From: Nitrosococcus oceani ATCC 19707
Lineage (GTDB): Bacteria > Pseudomonadota > Gammaproteobacteria > Nitrosococcales > Nitrosococcaceae
Length of the DNA: 32,000 bases
Assembly: GCF_000012805.1 (NCBI RefSeq)
Contig: NC_007484.1
Span: 3,330,001 to 3,362,000 of the forward strand
Direction of reading: 5' to 3'
How positions within the stretch are numbered: position 1 is the stretch's first letter; every line of letters begins with the position of its first letter. The position numbers were made by a program, and so were the translations under genes. Below, piece by piece: positions 2,228-17,111 of the stretch. Below the pieces are notes generated by a model, which worked only from the letters and a program-made list of their open reading frames with translations, did no database searches and was not told the origin of the DNA.

Positions 2228-2298
2228 ACCTAAGCGGTGATTCGGAGTACCCTTTTTTTTATATGCGGTCAAACGTCATCTGCAGCGATTTGTTAGGT
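2228..2298 (-). mobile_element. degenerate attC-like site
   Basis: Right arm TCTGCAGC-GATTT-GTTAGGT (2279-2298) matches the right arms of other attCs here (GCTGCAGT-GAATT-GTTATAC; ...GATTT-GTTAGGC). Left box ACCTAAG (2228-2234) has G instead of the final C, and arm pairing is poor. Overlaps the higA 3' end. Confidence 0.3.
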
Positions 2299-2743
2299 CC
2301 GCCCCAAAAAACACCGCCGGGCTTACGCCGAAACGGCCTGATAGCTTGGCAATATGCTCTTTAGTAAGCGACCGCTGCCCAGACAAAATCATAGACACCA
2401 AAGACTTAGAGCCTATTTCTTCACGCAGCCCAGATGCTCCCAGCGCATGCTGCTCCATAAGCAATCTTAATGCTGAAACACCAGGATCAATACCTTCAGC
2501 CTCCTTGTGGAACTGAACCATCTTGTCCTGTTTTGATTCATACTCCTCAACAGCGCCAGCCAGTATCTTGATGAGGTCATTCAACGGATCTAATCTAGAA
2601 TCTTCCGCTTCGGTCATGAGTTCTTCAATCAGATCCAAGGTTTTCTGATAGTCACGCTTGTTGCGGATATGGATAAAGCGATGGGCTGCTTGGGAAAAAT
2701 GAGAAAAACTATCAGCCACTTTCCGATATTCGGTAGTAAGCAT
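2276..2743 (-). CDS. higA: HigA family antitoxin (XRE-type HTH)
   Basis: 155 aa. The C-terminal IGSKSLVSMILSGQRSLTKEHIAKLSGRFGVSPAVFF closely resembles E. coli HigA (IGSKSMVSRVLSGKRKLTLEHAKKLATRFGISPALF). The start overlaps the higB stop by 1 nt. Confidence 0.85.
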   Translation of the reverse strand: MLTTEYRKVADSFSHFSQAAHRFIHIRNKRDYQKTLDLIEELMTEAEDSRLDPLNDLIKILAGAVEEYESKQDKMVQFHKEAEGIDPGVSALRLLMEQHALGASGLREEIGSKSLVSMILSGQRSLTKEHIAKLSGRFGVSPAVFFGADLTNRCR

Positions 2744-3054
2744 TATAATTCTCCTTTGAGGTATCTTGAGTTCAACCTGTCGTATTCGGCATGCGTCACG
2801 ATATGCTTCACGTAGACGTGTTGATGTACAAACTGAATCGCAGCGATTAGGCGTAAATTATTGCCACCTATATCTATGGCCCACCAACGCTTCTTATGCT
2901 TAAAGTTGTCCAATGATGGGAAAACAATTCTAAGCTCAGATGGGCTGGAAAAACTGCCCCGCCGTAAGACGTTGTACGTATCCATAATCGACTGTCGGTC
3001 ATTCGGATATTTCTTAACAGCTTCGCTAAAAGGTTGCTTAGATATGACGTGCAC
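2743..3054 (-). CDS. higB: HigB family type II toxin (mRNA interferase)
   Basis: 103 aa, GTG start. The MHVISKQPF...YPN...W...F...F...IGGNNLRLIAAIQF...VYVKHIVTHAEYDR pattern is typical of HigB_toxin family proteins. Toxin-first order with higA. Confidence 0.85.
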   Translation of the reverse strand: MHVISKQPFSEAVKKYPNDRQSIMDTYNVLRRGSFSSPSELRIVFPSLDNFKHKKRWWAIDIGGNNLRLIAAIQFVHQHVYVKHIVTHAEYDRLNSRYLKGEL

Positions 3055-3132: not shown

Positions 3133-3313
3133 GCCTAACGAGTCGAAGTTGAGCGGCACCCCCGACTTGGGCAAATGAGGGTTCATTCCTTCTTCGGAGT
3201 TAGTAGTCTTTTGTTGTGTAATAACGTTTAAAAGAAGCTGATTTTAGACCCTCATTTGCCCAACCAAGGGGGCGAAGCCGCGAAGCGGTGTCCGCTCCAA
3301 CGATTTGTTAGGC
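3133..3313 (-). mobile_element. long integron attC site (181 bp) with extended inner hairpin
   Basis: GCCTAAC at 3133-3139 and GTTAGGC at 3307-3313. Outer arms GAGTCGAAGTTGAGCGGCACC / GGTGTCCGCTCCAACGATTT are complementary with bulges. Inner arms CTTGGGCAAATGAGGGT (3165-3181) / ACCCTCATTTGCCCAAC (3249-3265). Confidence 0.65.
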
Positions 3314-4239: not shown

Positions 4240-4357
4240 GCCTAACGGAGCGAATCCGCGAAGCGGTGTCCACTCCAACGGGAGATAGGCGGTGCAAAGC
4301 GCGGAAGGAACCAAACCGCGTAGCGGTTTGGCAGTCGGCTGGAGCGCCTAGTTAGAG
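4240..4357 (-). mobile_element. composite / degenerate attC region
   Basis: GCCTAAC at 4240-4246 and GTTAGAG at 4351-4357. 4252-4290 (GAATCCGCGAAGCGGTGTCCACTCCAACGGGAGATAGGC) is a near copy of the right arm of the 3133-3313 attC, with its core mutated to GATAGGC. Perfect 9-bp hairpin CCAAACCGC-GTA-GCGGTTTGG at 4311-4331. Confidence 0.45.
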
Positions 4358-5136: not shown

Positions 5137-5604
5137 ATGCGGCTTTGGTCATTACATCCTCAATATCTTGATGCTAAAGGCTTGGTCGCCCTATGGCGAG
5201 AAGCGCTACTGGCGCAAGCTGTTTTGGCAGGTCTAACTCGTGGCTATAAGCATCATCCACAACTTGTTCGTTTTAAAGAAACTGAGCGGCCCAGAGGTTA
5301 TATTGCCTCTTACTTACAGGCCGTACTTGTTGAGGCTTCCCGTCGCAGCTATTGCTTCAATGGAGAGAAAATCGGCCAACTTGGTTCCGTTGAAGCGCTG
5401 CTAGTCACGAAGGGCCAGCTAAATTATGAGTGGGTACACTTAAAGAATAAACTCCAATTCCGCGATCCCTCTTGGCTATTCCAGTTTCAAAGCGTTACGA
5501 TGCCTAAACCGCACCCGCTGTTCCAGATAGTGGCGGGTCCCGTTGCGAAGTGGGAAGCTATCTCTGCCCAACAGAGCACTCAATCTGGCCGCCTTAACCG
5601 CTAG
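5137..5604 (+). CDS. pyrimidine dimer DNA glycosylase / endonuclease V family protein
   Basis: MRLWSLHPQYLDAKGLVALWREALLAQAVL...GYKHHPQLVRF is the characteristic N-terminus of the Pyr_excise family, as I remember it. Confidence 0.75.
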   Translation: MRLWSLHPQYLDAKGLVALWREALLAQAVLAGLTRGYKHHPQLVRFKETERPRGYIASYLQAVLVEASRRSYCFNGEKIGQLGSVEALLVTKGQLNYEWVHLKNKLQFRDPSWLFQFQSVTMPKPHPLFQIVAGPVAKWEAISAQQSTQSGRLNR

Positions 5605-5668
5605 GGCAGTTAAGGTTACTTCCACGTCCTTGGGCCGCTCCGGCAGCAAGTTAGCTTAGGCGTTAGGC
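5592..5668. mobile_element. possible attC relic
   Basis: Ends AGTTAGCT-TAGGC-GTTAGGC (core at 5662-5668), like the other right arms. The left side has only CCTTAAC (5592-5598) and poor arm complementarity. Confidence 0.2.
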
Positions 5669-7900: not shown

Positions 7901-8857
7901 CTACTTAGATAACTTTACTGGTGAAACAAAGCCGGGAGGTTTAACGGCAAGCACAGAACATTGCAACTGTTCGAGAATGGCTTCAGCGGTATTCCCAATG
8001 AGCAAACCCGCGATACCCGTCCGGGCGACTGTGCCCATCACCACCAAATCAGCATGCAGCTGCTTTGCTATGTCGGGTATAATGGTGGCGGCGGTCCCTC
8101 GACGCATATGAAATTCAGGGGAGAGATAGTCGCTAGCATCTCTGCCGACGCGCTCTATTAACTGTCGCCGCAGTCGGTTATAGGCGTTTTCATGACTTGA
8201 CCGCACACCCTCGACGTAGGCAATGCTTGCCTTCTGAGGGTCATCGGCCCATGTGCGTAACATCGCCTCGGCCGGGGCATCCCAAACATGAACCACATGC
8301 AGCGCGGCAAAATCAGAAAACGCGAGAGAACTAGATAAATCAAGTATCTGCTGGTTGAGGTTCTGCTCTATTGCATCTGGCATATCCGGATTGAAATCGA
8401 CAGCGGCGAGTATATGCTCGTACTTCGATTTTTCCTCCGTACGTGTTAACCATACCGGACAAGGACAATTGCGCAGTAACTGCATGTCGTCGCTGCCAAA
8501 CAGCCGTTCAATAAAGCTCGGATTCTCAGCCGGTTTGATCAGTAGATCATGGTCGTTGCGTAAAATAGCCCGAATAATTTCGAGAAATGTTCTGCCCTCC
8601 AGTACATCCAGCCGGATACGGACCCGTTTCCTGTAAGGCTCGATCAGCGCCTCGAGTTTTTTGCGGCGCTCGTTCACCGTGGCGGTTTGCAGTTCATTGG
8701 ATATCGAACCGCTGCGCAATATACCGATACCTGGAACCACATCAATGGCGGTTAAGTCCGCCTGGTTGTTTTCCGCTAGGGACACGGCTCGCATAATCGA
8801 AGCGTCCTGGGCCACAGCGCCTTCAGATACGTAAAGAATATTTTTGAATAAGTTCAT
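7901..8857 (-). CDS. tandem universal stress protein (UspA/UspE-like)
   Basis: 318 aa with two USP domains. C-terminal DLVVMGTVARTGIAGLLIGNTAE...CSVLAVKP is the classic USP ATP-binding motif region. Confidence 0.85.
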   Translation of the reverse strand: MNLFKNILYVSEGAVAQDASIMRAVSLAENNQADLTAIDVVPGIGILRSGSISNELQTATVNERRKKLEALIEPYRKRVRIRLDVLEGRTFLEIIRAILRNDHDLLIKPAENPSFIERLFGSDDMQLLRNCPCPVWLTRTEEKSKYEHILAAVDFNPDMPDAIEQNLNQQILDLSSSLAFSDFAALHVVHVWDAPAEAMLRTWADDPQKASIAYVEGVRSSHENAYNRLRRQLIERVGRDASDYLSPEFHMRRGTAATIIPDIAKQLHADLVVMGTVARTGIAGLLIGNTAEAILEQLQCSVLAVKPPGFVSPVKLSK

Positions 8858-8925: not shown

Positions 8926-10632
8926 TTACGGTTTATTGGTCTCATCTTCTAGAATAGGCTGGTAGCCTCGATCTCTCACGCCCTGAACCATCTCGTCGAT
9001 CTCATCGGACGATACATTGAGCATCTCCATCGCGGTGACACTAAGGCGCAAACTCAACTCAATCGTTTCCGGATAAGCGCGAGCAGCACCGGCAGCAAGC
9101 AGGCGTGTACTGGTTTCGAGATCCCGCGCCCGTACGATCACCGGCACCTGCGGACAGGTTCTATTTATATACGACATCACACCTAATGCGGTGCCGGGGC
9201 TGTCAACGGCGACTACGACTAGAGAAGCCCTTTCCACATGAATGGAAGACAGCAATCCCGGATCGGCAATGTCGCCGAACCAGACCGCATGCCCATCCGC
9301 CCGCCCCTGGGCTACCCGCTTCGGATCGGTGTCAAAAGCCACAAAGGGAACGCCGCATGAGTGCAATAGAACGGCGATGGTGTGGCCCACTCGCCCATAG
9401 CTGCCGATCACCACTTGTTTTTCCGGGGCCTCCTGTAATTCCGCTGTATCATGGGTTGTTGCCCGAGGCGTTTTGACTAACCACTTCGCTATAGTGCCAT
9501 TGAAACGGATCAGCAGAGCGCCAGCAATCATCGACAGAAGCACGGAGGTGATGGCAATTTGACCCAGTTGCATGGCAATCACGCCGGAATCGAGCGCGAT
9601 AGCGATGAGAGCGAGCCCAAATTCACCACCCACACTCACCATCAGTCCGGTTTGCCACGCTACCCGGGTATCGATCCCTGTCCCACGCACCATAGCGGCA
9701 ACAATCAACGTCTTGCTCGTCACAATAAGCAACGCGCCCAGCACGGTCCAGTGCCATATGGGGAGTATCGCCGCCGGGCTGAAGCGCATACCAATGCCGA
9801 TAAAAAACAGCCCCAATAATACGTCCCGAAATGGACGAATACTTGACTCTACCTGGTGGCGAAACTCCGTTTCGCCCAGCATCATCCCGGCAAGAAAGCC
9901 GCCGAATGCCAGCGACAAACCCAGGCTATTGGTGATCCAAGCGGCAAGCAAAGCAACCAGCAGCACAGCCAAGGTGAAAATTTCAACCGATCTGCGCTCG
10001 GAAACCACATGAAACAACGGGCCCAGCAACCAGCGCCCGGCAAAAAAGACAAGCACGAAGGCAAGCACGGCTTTTGCAAGGGCCAAGCCCAGCGTTCCCG
10101 CCAGCACATCCGCTGTGACCGACGTACCCAGCACAGGGATGGCCACAAGAAATGGAACGGCCGTAACATCTTGAAAAACCGACATTGCAAGCCCAAGACG
10201 GCCATGCTGAGTATTCTCCTCGCCCCGCTCGGTGAGCAGGCTGGCAATAATTATTGTGGAAGATTGAGCAAAAACGGCGCCGAACACGAACGCGGCGGCA
10301 ACCGGTAATCCTGCGAGCCACACTACCAACCCAACCACCAGGGTGGTGAACGCTACCTGCCCGGTACCCAGCCCAAGAACCTGGTGTCGCAAGGCGTGTA
10401 TTTGGGGCAGAGAGAAATTAAGGCCTATGGTAAACAGCAGGAAAACAACACCGAATTCGGCAAACGCTTCCAGCTCCGGCATGGCAACTACCGGTCCGAT
10501 CGTGTACGGTCCAAGCACTATCCCTACCAACAAATATCCCAGGCTGGTCGGGGTATGAAAGCGCTGAAAAATAACCACGACAGTGATCGCCGTGGCCAAA
10601 AGCAGGATAATTTGGATGAGATATTCCATCAT
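8926..10632 (-). CDS. CPA2 monovalent cation:proton antiporter (KefB/KefC-like) with C-terminal RCK/TrkA-N domain
   Basis: About 12 TM helices, then VVIGSYGRVGHTIAVLL (a Rossmann GxGxxG-like motif) typical of Kef-type systems. Confidence 0.85.
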   Translation of the reverse strand: MMEYLIQIILLLATAITVVVIFQRFHTPTSLGYLLVGIVLGPYTIGPVVAMPELEAFAEFGVVFLLFTIGLNFSLPQIHALRHQVLGLGTGQVAFTTLVVGLVVWLAGLPVAAAFVFGAVFAQSSTIIIASLLTERGEENTQHGRLGLAMSVFQDVTAVPFLVAIPVLGTSVTADVLAGTLGLALAKAVLAFVLVFFAGRWLLGPLFHVVSERRSVEIFTLAVLLVALLAAWITNSLGLSLAFGGFLAGMMLGETEFRHQVESSIRPFRDVLLGLFFIGIGMRFSPAAILPIWHWTVLGALLIVTSKTLIVAAMVRGTGIDTRVAWQTGLMVSVGGEFGLALIAIALDSGVIAMQLGQIAITSVLLSMIAGALLIRFNGTIAKWLVKTPRATTHDTAELQEAPEKQVVIGSYGRVGHTIAVLLHSCGVPFVAFDTDPKRVAQGRADGHAVWFGDIADPGLLSSIHVERASLVVVAVDSPGTALGVMSYINRTCPQVPVIVRARDLETSTRLLAAGAARAYPETIELSLRLSVTAMEMLNVSSDEIDEMVQGVRDRGYQPILEDETNKP

Positions 10633-12007: not shown

Positions 12008-12070
12008 ACATAACGACCAAGCTAACCGGCGCCGCGTTCATCGGCGTCCGAGTTGGACATTGCTTTGGAG
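12008..12070 (-). mobile_element. integron attC site (63 bp, one degenerate box)
   Basis: ACATAAC-GACCAA-GCTAACC-(23 nt with stem CGGCGCCG/CGGCGTCCG)-AGTTGGAC-ATTGC-TTTGGAG. The left box is identical to that of the 12479 site. The right box is degenerate. Confidence 0.55.
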
Positions 12071-12478: not shown

Positions 12479-12543
12479 ACATAACGCTTGAACTCAGCGG
12501 TGGCCCGTCAGGGCTTGCCGTCCGCTGCAGTGAATTGTTATAC
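12479..12543 (-). mobile_element. integron attC site (65 bp)
   Basis: ACATAAC-GCTTGA-ACTCAGC-(25 nt)-GCTGCAGT-GAATT-GTTATAC. rc(ACTCAGC)=GCTGAGT versus GCTGCAGT, i.e. one extra base in the right arm. Begins 18 nt 3' of the 12561 stop. Confidence 0.8.
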
Positions 12544-12560
12544 GGAAAACTCTTCACGTG

Positions 12561-14093
12561 TTACTCGGCTGCGAGACCAGCATATCGAATACCAGCAAGT
12601 TCCGCTATGGGCTTTTTCCACGAAGTAATGTCATCTGTATTGAAGTCGTTCAGCTTGGTATGGCCACACGCTCGGGCCATAACCTTCATGAGTTCGGTTG
12701 AGGCACTAAAGAATCGGGCAAGACGTTCAGCAGCGACATCAACATTGAGCCGTGCGCGCAGCTCCTCTTTCTGTGTGGCAATGCCCGTCGGGCAGTTATT
12801 TGTATGGCATATTCGGGCACCCACGCAACCAATGGCTTGTATTGCGCTATTGGCTACGGCAATGCCGTCTGCCCCTAAACACAGCGCTTTGATGAAATCA
12901 TCAGGTGTACGCAATCCACCCGTAATGATTAAGGTAACATCCTCACGACCTACGGCATGCAAGTGTCGACGAGCACGTGCGAGCGCCGGAATCGTGGGAA
13001 CGGCTATGTTGTCACGAAACAGAAGTGGGGCCGCACCCGTACCGCCGCCTCTTCCATCTAAGATAATGTAATCAGCAGAAGCCTCCAGGGCAAAATCGAT
13101 GTCTTTTTCAATGTGCTGGGCCGACATCTTAAAACCGATCGGAATCCCGCCAGACACCTCACGCACATGGTCGGCAAATTCCTTGAAATCATGCGGTGCC
13201 TTGAGATTCGGGAAAATGGATGGGGACACCGCATCTTTCCCGACGGGTATACCGCGCACTGAGGCAATGTCCTCGCTGACCTTGACCCCCGGCAGATGCC
13301 CACCGGTTCCAGTTTTTGCGGCCTGACCAGCCTTGAAATGAAACGCTTGAATACGTGTCAAAAGGGACTCGCTATAGCCAAACTTAGCTGATGCGAGCTC
13401 AAACATGTAGCGTGAATTGGCTTGTTGTTCTGCGGGCAGCATACCACCCTCGCCAGAAGCAATACCGGTCCCGGCCAACTCCGCACCACGCGCCAACGCA
13501 GTTTTGGCCTCTTCCGATAGGGCGCCGAAACTCATGTCTGATACAAAAAGGGGTAGCGCAAGATGCAATGGCCTTTTTGCATTCGGGCCGATGGTGAGCC
13601 CTGTATCCACGGGAGCATCCTCTTGCAGAGGCATACGAGCAAGTTGTGCTGTAAGGATTTGTATATCCTCCCAGCCCGGCAGACGGGAGCGCGGCACGCC
13701 CATCGCATCCATTTTGCCTTGCTGTCCGTAGTGTTTTAGGCCGTGTTTAGCCAATGAGTGGATAAACTCCACCGTCGGCTCTTCTGGCGTATTGACTGGA
13801 GCCGGAGACTCCGCTTTTGGTCTCCTATCGGGTATTTCCAGTTCCGTTTCATCCGGCGGCAAGGTTTTGTGCGTCCCATCACAATACGGAGCATTACCTG
13901 TTTGTTTGCACATGCACAGCCATTCGCTGGCCCCTTCCTCAACCATGAACGCAACCGGTTTGATACCGGTCCCGACATGCGAGCCATCACAAAACGGTTG
14001 TTTCTTCGATCTCCCACAAGCACACCAGTAGTATTCGCCCGGCTCCGAATTCAGCTGCTTCGGAATACGATCCGCTATCTTTGCTTTCGCCAT
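12561..14093 (-). CDS. FMN-binding glutamate synthase family protein with two N-terminal CDGSH iron-sulfur domains
   Basis: Start moved to ATG 14093 (AGGTGGA SD 5 nt upstream). CACGRSKKQPFCDGSH and CMCKQTGNAPYCDGTH are CDGSH motifs. The body carries GltS FMN-domain hallmarks (GEGGMLP, KTGTGGHLPG, LDGRGGGTGAAP, CHTNNCPTGIATQ). Confidence 0.85.
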   Translation of the reverse strand: MAKAKIADRIPKQLNSEPGEYYWCACGRSKKQPFCDGSHVGTGIKPVAFMVEEGASEWLCMCKQTGNAPYCDGTHKTLPPDETELEIPDRRPKAESPAPVNTPEEPTVEFIHSLAKHGLKHYGQQGKMDAMGVPRSRLPGWEDIQILTAQLARMPLQEDAPVDTGLTIGPNAKRPLHLALPLFVSDMSFGALSEEAKTALARGAELAGTGIASGEGGMLPAEQQANSRYMFELASAKFGYSESLLTRIQAFHFKAGQAAKTGTGGHLPGVKVSEDIASVRGIPVGKDAVSPSIFPNLKAPHDFKEFADHVREVSGGIPIGFKMSAQHIEKDIDFALEASADYIILDGRGGGTGAAPLLFRDNIAVPTIPALARARRHLHAVGREDVTLIITGGLRTPDDFIKALCLGADGIAVANSAIQAIGCVGARICHTNNCPTGIATQKEELRARLNVDVAAERLARFFSASTELMKVMARACGHTKLNDFNTDDITSWKKPIAELAGIRYAGLAAE

Positions 14094-14124
14094 TATTTCC
14101 ACCTGTATGTCTTGAATATTTTCC

Positions 14125-14212
14125 CGTATAACACTTCGCATCGCCGGCAGCAAAAAGCGGAGTAACAAAGGAGCTCCGCTTTTTGCTGTCCGAGTGCATA
14201 TGATTGTTATAC
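14125..14212 (-). mobile_element. integron attC site (88 bp)
   Basis: GTATAAC (14125-14131) ... GTTATAC (14206-14212). 16-bp near-perfect stem GCAGCAAAAAGCGGAG/CTCCGCTTTTTGCTGT. The right arm is 2 nt longer than the left. The stop codon of the 14207-14920 ORF lies inside the core box. Confidence 0.8.
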
Positions 14213-14920
14213 ATATGCTTTTAATCTTGTTTCAAATACTGAAAGAACAGAATCAAAATAATTTTCTACCAGACTTTCTAAAGCCACGAGCTGGCCCTTA
14301 AAGTCTTGTTTTTTCTCGGCAACGAAATCATCCGTTTTCTTTTTGAACAGATATCTGTAGCGCTCAAAATCATCATCTTTTTCCGCGAGGAGGTAATAAG
14401 AACCAAGCTGGTCAAGATCCTTTTCTGAGTAAGTACCTTGATGCGCGACCGTATTTCTGTGATAACGGAACGGCCCAGTAAACTTATCGAGTTCAGTTAG
14501 AGATTTAGCGACAGGCGTTCCTTTTACGTGGGCATTTTTTATTATGGAATCGTTATTGCATTGCCGTTCGGGAAGGCCAAGTTGGTAAATGACGTTCGCA
14601 AGGCGAAGGCACCGATCAAAAACTGATGTAAAGCGTAGATAATAATTTTCAATCCCATAGACTACATAGTCATATCGATTCATTTTATCGGGTGAACTAT
14701 TCGACCTATACCCTGACAGCATCTCTATAGAAAAGTGTAGCTGATCTATACAGGCAACAACATTACTGATGGATAGAAATGCCTCTATCCCGTAGCTTTC
14801 TTCCCTCGTAGACAATGGATCATTCGCTGGGTCGTCAGGATTGCACTTAGTTATGTATTCCCTGCAAACGGCTACCGCCGATTTCAGAAGAGCATGGTCT
14901 TTGAGTTGTGTGATCTTCAT
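14207..14920 (-). CDS. HEPN-domain protein (Rx4H motif), putative RNase / abortive-infection-type effector
   Basis: 237 aa, all-helical-looking. R155-N-T-V-A-H160 (nt 14441-14458, checked against the DNA) fits the HEPN Rx4-6H motif. The overall look resembles Cthe_2314-type HEPN proteins (from memory). The single ORF fills one cassette. Confidence 0.6.
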   Translation of the reverse strand: MKITQLKDHALLKSAVAVCREYITKCNPDDPANDPLSTREESYGIEAFLSISNVVACIDQLHFSIEMLSGYRSNSSPDKMNRYDYVVYGIENYYLRFTSVFDRCLRLANVIYQLGLPERQCNNDSIIKNAHVKGTPVAKSLTELDKFTGPFRYHRNTVAHQGTYSEKDLDQLGSYYLLAEKDDDFERYRYLFKKKTDDFVAEKKQDFKGQLVALESLVENYFDSVLSVFETRLKAYV

Positions 14921-14929
14921 CTATTTACC

Positions 14930-14988
14930 GTATAACACTTGAGTTAAGCGGCCACTGTCACGCGGATCGCTTGGACGAATGGTTAGGC
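14930..14988 (-). mobile_element. integron attC site (59 bp)
   Basis: GTATAAC-ACTTGA-GTTAAGC-(19 nt)-GCTTGGAC-GAATG-GTTAGGC. This has the classic 59-base-element size and layout. The extra base in the right-arm 8-mer implies that the plus strand is the bottom strand. Confidence 0.8.
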
Positions 14989-15720
14989 GGCAATACCACC
15001 ACCGTTTCCTTGGGCCAACATACTGCGACAGCCGGAACCCGGCAACTGCTAAGCTGATGGTTGGCCTGCGCCGGGAAGCGAATCCCGTATTCGAGAGGCT
15101 GGACGCTGCTGCGAATAGTCCGCTGACAAAAGTTACTCCTGCAAAAGAGAAGCCTGCGGCCCAAAAGCTGCCCCGCAAGTCCAGGCACAAAGCCGAACGA
15201 GGCAAAAAAGCTTACGCCGCAAGCAGCAGGGAATTGGACCCGCAGGGATTAAGATTATACAAAACTCCCGATCATTCTCATCCCAGTTGCCCGAAGCGTA
15301 GTTCTGCTGCCACAGAAAAGTATGCTGAACATTGGCCTTCCAACCCTTCTCGTACATTGAATGATTATTGAAGATCTCCAAGAGCTGGCTGTTACGGTTC
15401 TCGAATGAGGAATCATCCAAGCTGGCGAGAAACGATTTCCCGGCAAGTAACTTCTGTTCGATTCCATTGGCCGTTCTCGGCATTGAGATGTGGCCGTTTC
15501 CAGAATAGTTGGCAAGACACCTCCCAGGTGCAAGAATGCATCACGAGGCTTATTATCAGACTTGATTCTGGCGGGCCAATTAACAACCATCGGGTTACGC
15601 GTACCGCCAGGATGAGAGGCGCGACCTCTGCCTCGCCCATTAGAAGGGGGTATTACCCGCCCAGAGCCGAATAGGTAGGCTCCGGTTTCAGGCGCTTGAA
15701 GAACTTTAGGGAAAGCTGCT
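14986..15720 (-). pseudogene. arylsulfatase-family pseudogene fragment (both ends missing, several frameshifts)
   Basis: Minus-strand pieces: ...ASHPGGTRNPMVVNWPARIKSDNKPRDAFLHLGGVLPTILETA / MPRTANGIEQKLLAGKSFLASLDDSS...LLEIFNNHSMYEKGWKA / VLYNLNPCGSNSLLLAA / ...MLAQGNGGGIAA*. Compare sulfatase SH.GGTRN..VVHWP...H.ID..PTILE..G...P..VNG..Q.P..G.S...GNR.IY..GWKA...W.LYNL. The track ORFs at 14921-15590 are its frames. Confidence 0.7.
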
Positions 15721-16097
15721 CGCTAGGAATCCTGAAAGATCACGCCGGCATCTCCTTCAAAACGGGGATCAGCATACGGTAGCGCCGTCTATCCTGTGGC
15801 AAAGAGGTCTAGAGTCCAGCTTATCCTAGGAAAAAACGCTCGGCACAAGGAACACTGCCATAAAAGCTGGGCAAAGCATAAATATAATTGCCTTTATTAT
15901 TGTCATTCTATCAGTACCTATGGATAAAATTAGGGACGGTATGGCACGAAGGGAAGTCACAAAGCTGTTTTTCCTCTCCAAAAGATTTGATGGGCGTTCT
16001 GATTATCTTTCGGATATTCCAATCCTATCCTGACGAATCGGCGCAGGGCTTTCCTGCCCCCTCGCACTAATACTTCGAAAATTTTGTCGAGGCCCTT

Positions 16098-17111
16098 ATG
16101 CTCTTCTCCTATGACTGTAAAAAAACAATTCAAATGGCGGATTACTCAAAAGCTTATAAAATATCTGTCGCACCGATGATGGAATGGACCGATCGGCACT
16201 GCCGTTATTTTCTCCGCCTGATTTCCCATCGTGCCCTGCTCTATACCGAAATGGTCACTGCGGGAGCGCTCATTCATGGGAATCGAGCTCGTTTTCTAGC
16301 CTATCATAAGTCTGAGCATCCCTTGGCTTTGCAACTGGGGGGAAGTCATCCCGAAGAATTAGCCCTTTGTGCCCAGATGGCCGAGGACTATGGGTTTGAT
16401 GAGGTCAACCTTAATGTGGGCTGTCCCAGCAACCGGGTACAGTCTGGGCGCTTCGGAGCCTGTCTGATGGCGGAGCCTGAGCTGGTTGCCGAATGCGTTG
16501 CCGCCATGGCTCAAGCCACCCAAATCCCGGTAACGGTCAAGACCCGGATTGGAATCGATGAGCAGGACTCCTACGAAGCGTTAGACCACTTCATCAGCAC
16601 GGTAGCGCAAGCAGGCTGCCGAACTTTTATCATCCATGCCCGCAAAGCTTGGCTGCAAGGCTTGAGCCCCAAGGAAAACCGAGAAAAACCTCCCTTACGC
16701 TATGATGTGGTGCGGACCATCAAGCAGGATTTTCCTCAACTGACAGTAATCATCAACGGGGGCATTACCACTCTGGAGGAGATTTCTGAGCACTTAGAAT
16801 TATTGGATGGCGTCATGATTGGCCGGGCGGCCTACCATAACCCTTATCTACTTGCCCAAGTGGACCGGAATTTCTATGGAGATTTTCATCCTTTTCTCAC
16901 CCGGCATGAGATTATTGAGGCTTTCTTGCCCTATGTGGCAGAGCAATTGGTCCAAGGCGTGTATTTGAACCATATGACCCGCCATATTCTAGGGTTGTTC
17001 CAAGGCCAACCAGGGGCACGGGCCTGGCGCCGCCATTTAAGCGAAAATGCTCATCGGCCTGGCGCGGGGATAGAGATCATCCGGGAAGCCTTACGGCAAA
17101 TGCCGTGTTAG
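16098..17111 (+). CDS. dusA: tRNA-dihydrouridine(20/20a) synthase DusA
   Basis: [22 protein letters not shown]...LYTEMV...LQLGGS.P...[18 protein letters not shown]...[18 protein letters not shown] are DusA hallmarks. The true start may be ATG 16134 (MADYSKAYK...). Confidence 0.9.

Follow-up and report, generated by a model that had tools for sequence, protein, structure and literature searches.

A Cthe_2314-family HEPN gene carried as a mobile single-gene integron cassette in Nitrosococcus oceani

The 804-bp cassette of Noc_2958

The 32-kb window analyzed here (the whole stretch of 32,000 nucleotides from contig NC_007484.1, positions 3,330,001 to 3,362,000, of Nitrosococcus oceani ATCC 19707) contains an array of integron attC recombination sites, and one cassette of this array carries a single open reading frame (ORF) of 237 aa. 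The exact sequence of the ORF is that of Noc_2958 (WP_011331108.1), already annotated by NCBI as a "Cthe_2314 family HEPN domain-containing protein". The original prediction, made from the DNA alone, held that the ORF exactly fills one cassette, and this was correct: attC sites at 14930-14988 and 14126-14212 (window numbering; Table 1) enclose a unit of 804 bp composed of a 15-nt leader, the 714-nt ORF, which fills 89% of the cassette, and the attC. The cassette limits, 14132-14935, were set by the G/TT crossover rule, with the R' box of the 14930-14988 site, which belongs to the preceding cassette, providing the 5' boundary. The interval is an integron cassette with a single gene, and an integrase is expected to be able to excise it and insert it at the G/TT of the attC.

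The attC sites were scored with a covariance model (CM R1) built from 12 aligned attC sites taken from the window and from loci of homologues (designated by L numbers; Table 1), and both sites flanking the HEPN gene belonged to the training set. The 12 aligned sites have in common R and L helices that include a bulged base. Paired cells make up 83.8% of the alignment, compared with 27-47% when the partners are slid, and its covariation score of 0.417, compared with 0.175 for shuffles, was exceeded in 0/500. On the minus strand, the model gives 52 bits to the attC of the HEPN cassette and 42.1 bits to that of the preceding cassette, compared with 9.6 and 13 bits, respectively, on the plus strand; the L017 homologue of the HEPN attC reaches 57.6 bits. 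The predicted DNA fold of the HEPN attC has an energy of -26.2 kcal/mol (z = -7.0). Outside the training set, the model found sites in the window at 5566-5668 on the plus strand and 3133-3313 on the minus strand, together with weaker ones, and in the homologue loci it found seven in L005 and two each in L018, L019, and L020. All 19 matches in the homologue loci (19/19, training and non-training) lie on the strand of the HEPN gene. A home-made heuristic (RYYYAAC...GTTRRRY with constrained folding) gave five sites on the minus strand versus a mean of 1.2 in shuffles; it overlooked the 14930-14988 site and every site of the bona fide integron of L005, and was dropped as too crude in favor of the covariance model.

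Comparison by blastn placed the limits of similarity between loci at the cassette ends. Homology to the HEPN cassette starts at 14942 for L017, at 14937 for L001, and at 14936 for L018 and L005, which is the G/TTATAC crossover wherever the flank aligns, and homology to L017 ends at 14129, with the same attC kept in L017. The similarity therefore breaks at the integron crossover point. The leader of the cassette is also present in L001, L017, and L005. A 17-nt direct repeat (14120-14136 and 14924-14940) reflects the two R' boxes. Interpretation of the 17-nt repeats and of an inverted copy at 12532-12556 as target-site duplications, insertion sequence (IS) ends, or an operator or promoter was rejected because they are the R' boxes (GTTATAC) and the R'' box (GTATAAC) of three consecutive attC sites.

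The central stem of the HEPN attC contains a perfect 15-bp inverted repeat (14148-14188). On the mRNA strand the site reads GCGGAG-loop-CUCCGC followed by UUUUUG (a T-run), so that the attC could possibly also serve as an intrinsic terminator that shields the cassette downstream. This site was not flagged by the terminator scan, which accepts loops of 3-8 nt, the loop here being of 11 nt.

HEPN family membership, motif, and structural models

The original prediction had identified Noc_2958 as a HEPN protein from its R-N-T-V-A-H sequence at residues 155-160, which fits the pattern Rx4-6H; its proposed checks included a Pfam search for the HEPN clan, and it named lack of conservation of the R/H pair among homologues as a refuting observation. 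The identification and the position of the motif both hold. Noc_2958 matches the Pfam HEPN-clan family PF18730 (HEPN_Cthe2314) with 50.2 bits (E value of 3.9e-13), above the curated gathering cut-off of 27.1 bits. All of the aligned homologues (28/28) match PF18730 and no other family, and a search of 5.8 billion proteins gave 62 homologues, nearly all exactly 237 aa in length and all with PF18730. An exhaustive profile search at E ≤ 1e-3 returned 944 cluster representatives, mostly stand-alone proteins of 235-265 aa that aligned across almost their whole length. By these sequence comparisons, Noc_2958 is assigned as a stand-alone member of the Cthe_2314 HEPN family.

The RNTVAH sequence is the sole R.{4,6}H match within Noc_2958. 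Taken alone, an R.{4,6}H motif is not significant: 57% of shuffled Noc_2958 sequences contain one, and 1.5% contain RNxxxH. The motif carries weight because of the PF18730 match and its conservation. Residues R155, N156, and H160 are invariant in the 28 close homologues, and across 52 diverse family members, down to approximately 20% identity, H160 and D102 are invariant, while conservation reaches 90% or more at R82, E91, R103, R155, and N156. The ratio of nonsynonymous to synonymous substitution rates (dN/dS) against the nearest homologues is 0.11-0.17, indicative of clear purifying selection. Taken together with the family match and the conservation of the motif, this ratio therefore identifies Noc_2958 as a real, selected gene with a conserved HEPN-type motif.

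AlphaFold models of Noc_2958 are confident, the predicted local distance difference test (pLDDT) score being 89.3 over the full length and 96.3 over the core (residues 36-182). The models are all-helical, with core helices at residues 39-67, 82-111, 136-159, and 167-181 onward, and with an insert (residues 112-135) between core helices 2 and 3. The third core helix ends in the RNTVAH motif, and the conserved R82, E91, D102, and R103 are located on the second. This modeled arrangement is consistent with the HEPN domain layout described by Anantharaman et al. 2013 (PMC3710099).

The cassette in other loci and the surrounding array

Six different cassette clusters contain the HEPN cassette: the array of the window, an integron with an IntI integrase, a cluster carried by a P2-like prophage, and a further three arrays (Table 1). 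It is demonstrably mobile. The length of its attC differs between loci, falling into classes of about 56, 76, 87, and 120 nt, and the box that overlaps the stop codon is GTATAAC in most loci and ACATAAC in L019. The cassette-borne clade comprises proteins with roughly 45% or greater identity to Noc_2958, with attC sites of several length classes. The family is rare, being found at only seven loci among 185,579 species-representative genomes.

The genes upstream and downstream of the cassette differ in every locus examined, and there is therefore no conserved partner: the cassette is a one-gene module. No second credible ORF is present in the 804 bp, the others being of 40-45 aa and out of frame or antisense, and no MNT nucleotidyltransferase or other antitoxin gene is adjacent, the neighbors not being conserved across the loci examined. 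The absence of an antitoxin-like partner from the cassette, as originally predicted, is thus borne out both by the lack of room for a second gene and by the changing neighbors.

In L017 (6740-10030), three cassettes separate gpV, the baseplate/spike gene, from gpS, the tail-completion gene, and their direction of transcription is opposite to that of the phage genes. The three encode a 211-aa unknown protein, the HEPN protein, and an M48 peptidase that faintly matches SH3_3, and their attC sites (7911-7991, 8709-8795, and 9885-9950) score 43-58 bits. The locus is an attC cassette cluster carried as prophage cargo.

In the L005 integron, the HEPN cassette directly follows the first cassette (9326-9901), whose 191-aa product has its own R-N-Q-A-A-H motif, an apparent N-terminal hydrophobic, possibly transmembrane (TM), segment as judged by eye, and sub-threshold matches to DUF4145 and HEPN_Swt1. 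The two would be different HEPN-type cassettes placed back to back. Comparison of Noc_2958 with this neighboring TM-HEPN-like protein by hhalign aligned the motif alone, with a probability of 4.5%.

The closest homologue locus is L001 (3936-6741; 89% identity), in which the HEPN cassette is preceded, at a distance of approximately 600 nt, by an IS110-family transposase gene, with a Tn3 transposase gene further downstream. The attC of the HEPN cassette is cut off there after CAGCAAAAA, with unrelated genes in its place, and the array looks as if it was rearranged by transposable elements. A copy in a metagenome-assembled genome of the Deltaproteobacteria (L009, 4879-5590; 75% identity, 712 nt) is open for 55 codons in its starting frame before a stop, and represents either a pseudogene with a frameshift or an error of the assembly. 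GTTATAC is still present immediately before its ATG.

In the N. oceani window, the covariance model places attC sites on the minus strand from approximately 15066 down to 223. Directly downstream of the HEPN cassette is a 535-aa ORF (12561-14168, minus strand), which in Pfam pairs two CDGSH iron-sulfur zinc-finger motifs with a glutamate-synthase flavin mononucleotide (FMN) domain (Glu_synthase). The attC sites on either side of its cassette score 52 and 58 bits; the ORF is unusually large, and the cassette cargo is metabolic-looking. Other cassettes hold a gene of the choloylglycine-hydrolase family, a HigB/HigA pair, and unknown ORFs. The pair consists of a HigB toxin gene (2743-3054) and a helix-turn-helix (HTH) antitoxin-like gene (2276-2743), both on the minus strand, between the attC-like site 3133-3313 and the weak site 2228-2298, and it is a typical toxin-antitoxin cassette of this array. 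A Pyr_excise (pyrimidine-dimer DNA glycosylase) gene on the plus strand is followed by the plus-strand attC-like site 5566-5668 (27.9 bits, E value of 2.6e-4); spanning 5137-5668, it looks like a cassette oriented opposite to the rest of the array.

The array end adjoins dusA (16098-17111). A dusA-targeting genomic island was considered and set aside, with no integrase present and dusA intact. Between the first clear attC and dusA (14990-16097, approximately 1.1 kb) no ORF has a family match, and the region contains a weak palindromic attC-like site (15013-15066; GGCCAAC...GTTGGCC) and overlapping minus-strand ORFs in different frames (15133-15483, 15255-15590, and 15413-15640) that suggest a decayed gene. 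A frameshifted sulfatase C-terminus at 15133-15640 (minus strand) received no Pfam support at E ≤ 1. A tblastn search of the ORF-poor gap 14990-16097 with genuine IntI found no intI remnant, and no Phage_integrase match was found among the window ORFs scanned. Scanning the window against Rfam and for tRNA genes gave no matches. The window lacks the adjacent intI that, with attI, marks a complete integron, and thus holds an integrase-less attC cluster: the array is either of the type known as a cluster of attC sites lacking integron-integrases (CALIN) or an integron whose intI is located elsewhere or was lost.

Table 1. Features of the Noc_2958 cassette, the window array, and homologue loci
Feature	Position	Strand	Remarks
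Complete integron gene cassette, 804 bp	14132..14935	-	between G/TT crossovers of two R' boxes (GTTATAC)
Cassette leader TTATACGGTAAATAG, 15 nt	14921..14935	-	weak GGT Shine-Dalgarno-like element only
Noc_2958 / WP_011331108.1 ORF	14207..14920	-	237 aa (714 nt), Cthe_2314-family HEPN protein
Pfam PF18730 HEPN_Cthe2314 region	14405..14728	-	residues 65-172; 50.2 bits, E 3.9e-13
R155-N-T-V-A-H160, Rx4H HEPN motif	14441..14458	-	residues 155-160; C-terminal end of third core helix (136-159)
attC of HEPN cassette, 87 nt	14126..14212	-	R'' GTATAAC overlaps TAA stop; R' GTTATAC
attC of preceding (upstream) cassette, 59 nt	14930..14988	-	GCCTAAC-CATTC-GTCCAAGC...GCTTAAC-TCAAGT-GTTATAC, short classical type
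attC of next cassette downstream	12479..12543	-	CM R1 58.1 bits; array continues
Clear window attC sites	223-282, 633-693, 1887-1958, 3133-3313, 12479-12543, 14126-14212, 14930-14988	-	
Weaker window attC sites	2228-2298, 4273-4357, 12008-12070, 15013-15066	-	
Homologue locus	L005/L008		second cassette of Ketobacteraceae integron; divergent IntI adjacent, with IntI-specific insert
Homologue locus	L017		three-cassette cluster between gpV and gpS tail genes of P2-like prophage
Homologue locus	L018		array also holding bSEFIR defence cassette
Homologue loci	L019, L020		long arrays of small co-directional genes
Homologue locus	L001		beside IS110 transposase gene; truncated attC

Candidate function and relation to known systems

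Genes associated with genetic conflict recur near the HEPN cassette: a bSEFIR defense cassette in the same array (L018), the accessory locus of a P2-like prophage (L017), and a Schlafen/AlbA_2 ATPase and IS110/Tn3 elements among the neighbors in L001. A defense role is plausible and would be consistent with the bSEFIR and prophage contexts, by analogy with validated HEPN cassettes. We give roughly even weight to the interpretation that Noc_2958 serves as an effector in conflicts with phages or other mobile elements, working by abortive infection or growth arrest. By analogy with characterized HEPN enzymes, we infer RNase activity, dimerization, a trigger, and the defense role itself. Noc_2958 would dimerize to form a composite, metal-independent RNase site from R155 and H160, and the dimer would cleave cellular RNA (tRNA, rRNA, or mRNA). 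No antitoxin would be involved in its control, and the lack of one is not anomalous because validated single-gene HEPN defenses exist. The protein might be kept harmless in two ways: by low, position-dependent expression of a cassette that has no promoter of its own and a weak ribosome-binding site, and by auto-inhibition through the conserved N-terminal (residues 1-64) and C-terminal (residues 183-237) helical extensions until a trigger is received.

Several results weigh against this picture of a mobile HEPN defense cassette. With the IntI of L005 as query, tblastn found no integrase gene in the 32-kb window, and no homologues of Noc_2958 were found by tblastn in 72,556 plasmids and 50,697 phages. 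No attC was seen in L010 and L012-L014, whose proteins have 57% or less identity to Noc_2958, and the cassette habit is therefore the property of one clade rather than of the whole family. The promoter scan found no minus-strand site between 14921 and 15250 (approximately 330 nt upstream); expression of Noc_2958 in N. oceani is therefore uncertain, and the gene may be silent there. No PADLOC-DB v2 family matched Noc_2958 at E ≤ 1, and NCBIfam gave no defense-system match. The search for a PADLOC defense model proposed in the original prediction thus returned nothing, in agreement with its statement that the protein could not be placed in a characterized defense family. No experiment on any Cthe_2314-family protein was found in the literature searched. 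A Foldseek search of the Protein Data Bank (PDB) with the core model placed the HEPN toxins 8yuf, 8xdj, 6m6u, 7bxo, and 7ae9 among the top matches, all non-significant (E values of 0.8-3.4, template modeling (TM) scores of approximately 0.4). With the full-length model the best E value was 0.33 and no HEPN protein was in the top 50, the matches in PDB and BFVD being generic helical bundles only. A hidden Markov model (HMM) profile of the Noc_2958 clade found nothing among PDB sequences at E ≤ 10 besides an unrelated designed protein. The fold comparison that had been proposed alongside the motif therefore gave a divided answer, the topology of the models fitting HEPN and the Foldseek matches to HEPN proteins being non-significant; together they weakly suggest a four-helix HEPN core.

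A more specific form of the conflict-effector interpretation, to which we hold only tentatively, is that the Cthe_2314 HEPN cassette is a new, self-contained, single-protein abortive-infection system. The terminal helices would sense infection and release the dimeric RNase, and the system would spread as a cassette, even into prophages, with the R'' box of its attC within the last codons of the gene.

It is unlikely, in our view, that Noc_2958 is instead a stress- or dormancy-inducing or RNA-processing RNase without a phage trigger, which would slow translation under stress. Exactly such a role was proposed for integron-borne HEPN domains (PMC3710099), the evidence from family, motif, and cassette applies to it equally, and the lack of a defense-database match would fit. 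Set against this, no stress-regulatory element or regulator is linked to Noc_2958, the single-gene HEPN cassettes that were tested gave phage phenotypes, and the prophage accessory locus and the bSEFIR neighbor point to conflict and not to housekeeping. We assign slightly less weight again to a helical, HEPN-like protein without nuclease function, whether an RNA or nucleotide binder, an adaptor, or a protein unrelated to RNA, and which may be silent cargo in N. oceani. The absence of a significant fold match, the existence of non-catalytic HEPN domains (PMC3710099), and the lack of a nearby promoter or integrase are in its favor, but R-N-x3-H and the charged residues of the adjacent helix are kept down to approximately 20% identity, which is an active-site-like pattern, and the dN/dS of 0.11-0.17 shows selection for function somewhere.

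Toxin-antitoxin cassettes are common in chromosomal integrons, the same array holds the HigB/HigA pair (2276-3054), and HEPN-MNT toxins are the nearest, if weak, structural matches, but an addiction toxin that stabilizes the array, with an antitoxin that is unlinked, RNA-based, or antisense within the cassette, is improbable because no antitoxin is linked: the ORF fills 89% of the cassette and leaves only ORFs of 40-45 aa, the flanking genes differ in all contexts examined with no adjacent MNT nucleotidyltransferase, and a constitutively active toxin that moved without its antitoxin would kill the recipient on transfer.

Integron cassettes are now recognized as libraries of compact anti-phage genes, and the Noc_2958 cassette adds the Cthe_2314 family to the cassette-borne HEPN genes. 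The gain is incremental, one more family in a known category and no new principle. The small size of the gene (714 bp) and the clear catalytic hypothesis (R155/H160) make it a cheap candidate for a defense or toxicity screen.

The closest comparison for a defense role is with the Vibrio cassettes. Esos, Taranis (AbiJ-like), and AbiV are single-gene HEPN cassettes of the Vibrio cholerae chromosomal integron that confer phage resistance (Darracq et al., 10.1101/2024.07.02.601686), and an AbiU2-HEPN cassette of V. mimicus is a validated phage defense (10.64898/2026.03.17.712381); resistance by single-gene HEPN cassettes operates via growth arrest or death (10.1101/2024.07.02.601686; 10.64898/2026.03.17.712381). 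Like these, the Noc_2958 cassette is promoterless, encodes one HEPN-domain protein with no partner gene, and belongs to a chromosomal integron array, and by analogy its expected mode of action would also be growth arrest or cell death on infection. It differs from Taranis, AbiV, and AbiU2-HEPN, and probably from Esos, in belonging to the Cthe_2314 family (PF18730), and it has no PADLOC match; whereas those cassettes come from Vibrio, the hosts of the Noc_2958 type are Nitrosococcus and uncultured environmental bacteria. Single-protein defenses of the AbiJ/SadR type, in which an R-polar-x-H motif is essential, are comparable to Noc_2958, and R/N/H mutants of SadR lose both RNase and defense activity (PMC13590631). 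Unlike Noc_2958, they belong to the Abi_C family, have a sensor-like N-terminal domain, and are not cassette-borne.

The HepT/MntA (HEPN-MNT) type VII toxins (8yuf, 8xdj, 6m6u, 7bxo, and 7ae9) are the best, although weak, structural neighbors of the core model. They are dimeric RNases with a four-helix HEPN bundle and an Rx4-6H motif. Noc_2958 is approximately 100 aa larger, has conserved N- and C-terminal helical extensions, and lacks an MNT partner, and the weakness of the Foldseek matches indicates that the fold class alone is shared, if that.

With the "Integron cassette HEPN" family (PDB 3jrt; Anantharaman et al. 2013), Noc_2958 has in common a HEPN domain on gammaproteobacterial integron cassettes, but it belongs to a separate family: there was no PDB profile match, and 3jrt was not in the top 50 Foldseek matches. 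The HMM score, the Rx4-6H motif, and the stand-alone bacterial protein of approximately 240 aa agree with the Cthe_2314 family (PMC3710099; PF18730). The 2013 survey gave the genomic context of that family as "None detected" (PMC3710099), whereas the Noc_2958 clade is repeatedly cassette-borne. The public HEPN annotation, the occurrence of HEPN domains on integron cassettes (known since 2013 for another family, 3jrt), and the defense against phages by single-gene HEPN cassettes were already known; what is new is the recurrence of one Cthe_2314 clade on integron cassettes of demonstrable mobility, and its presence inside a prophage.

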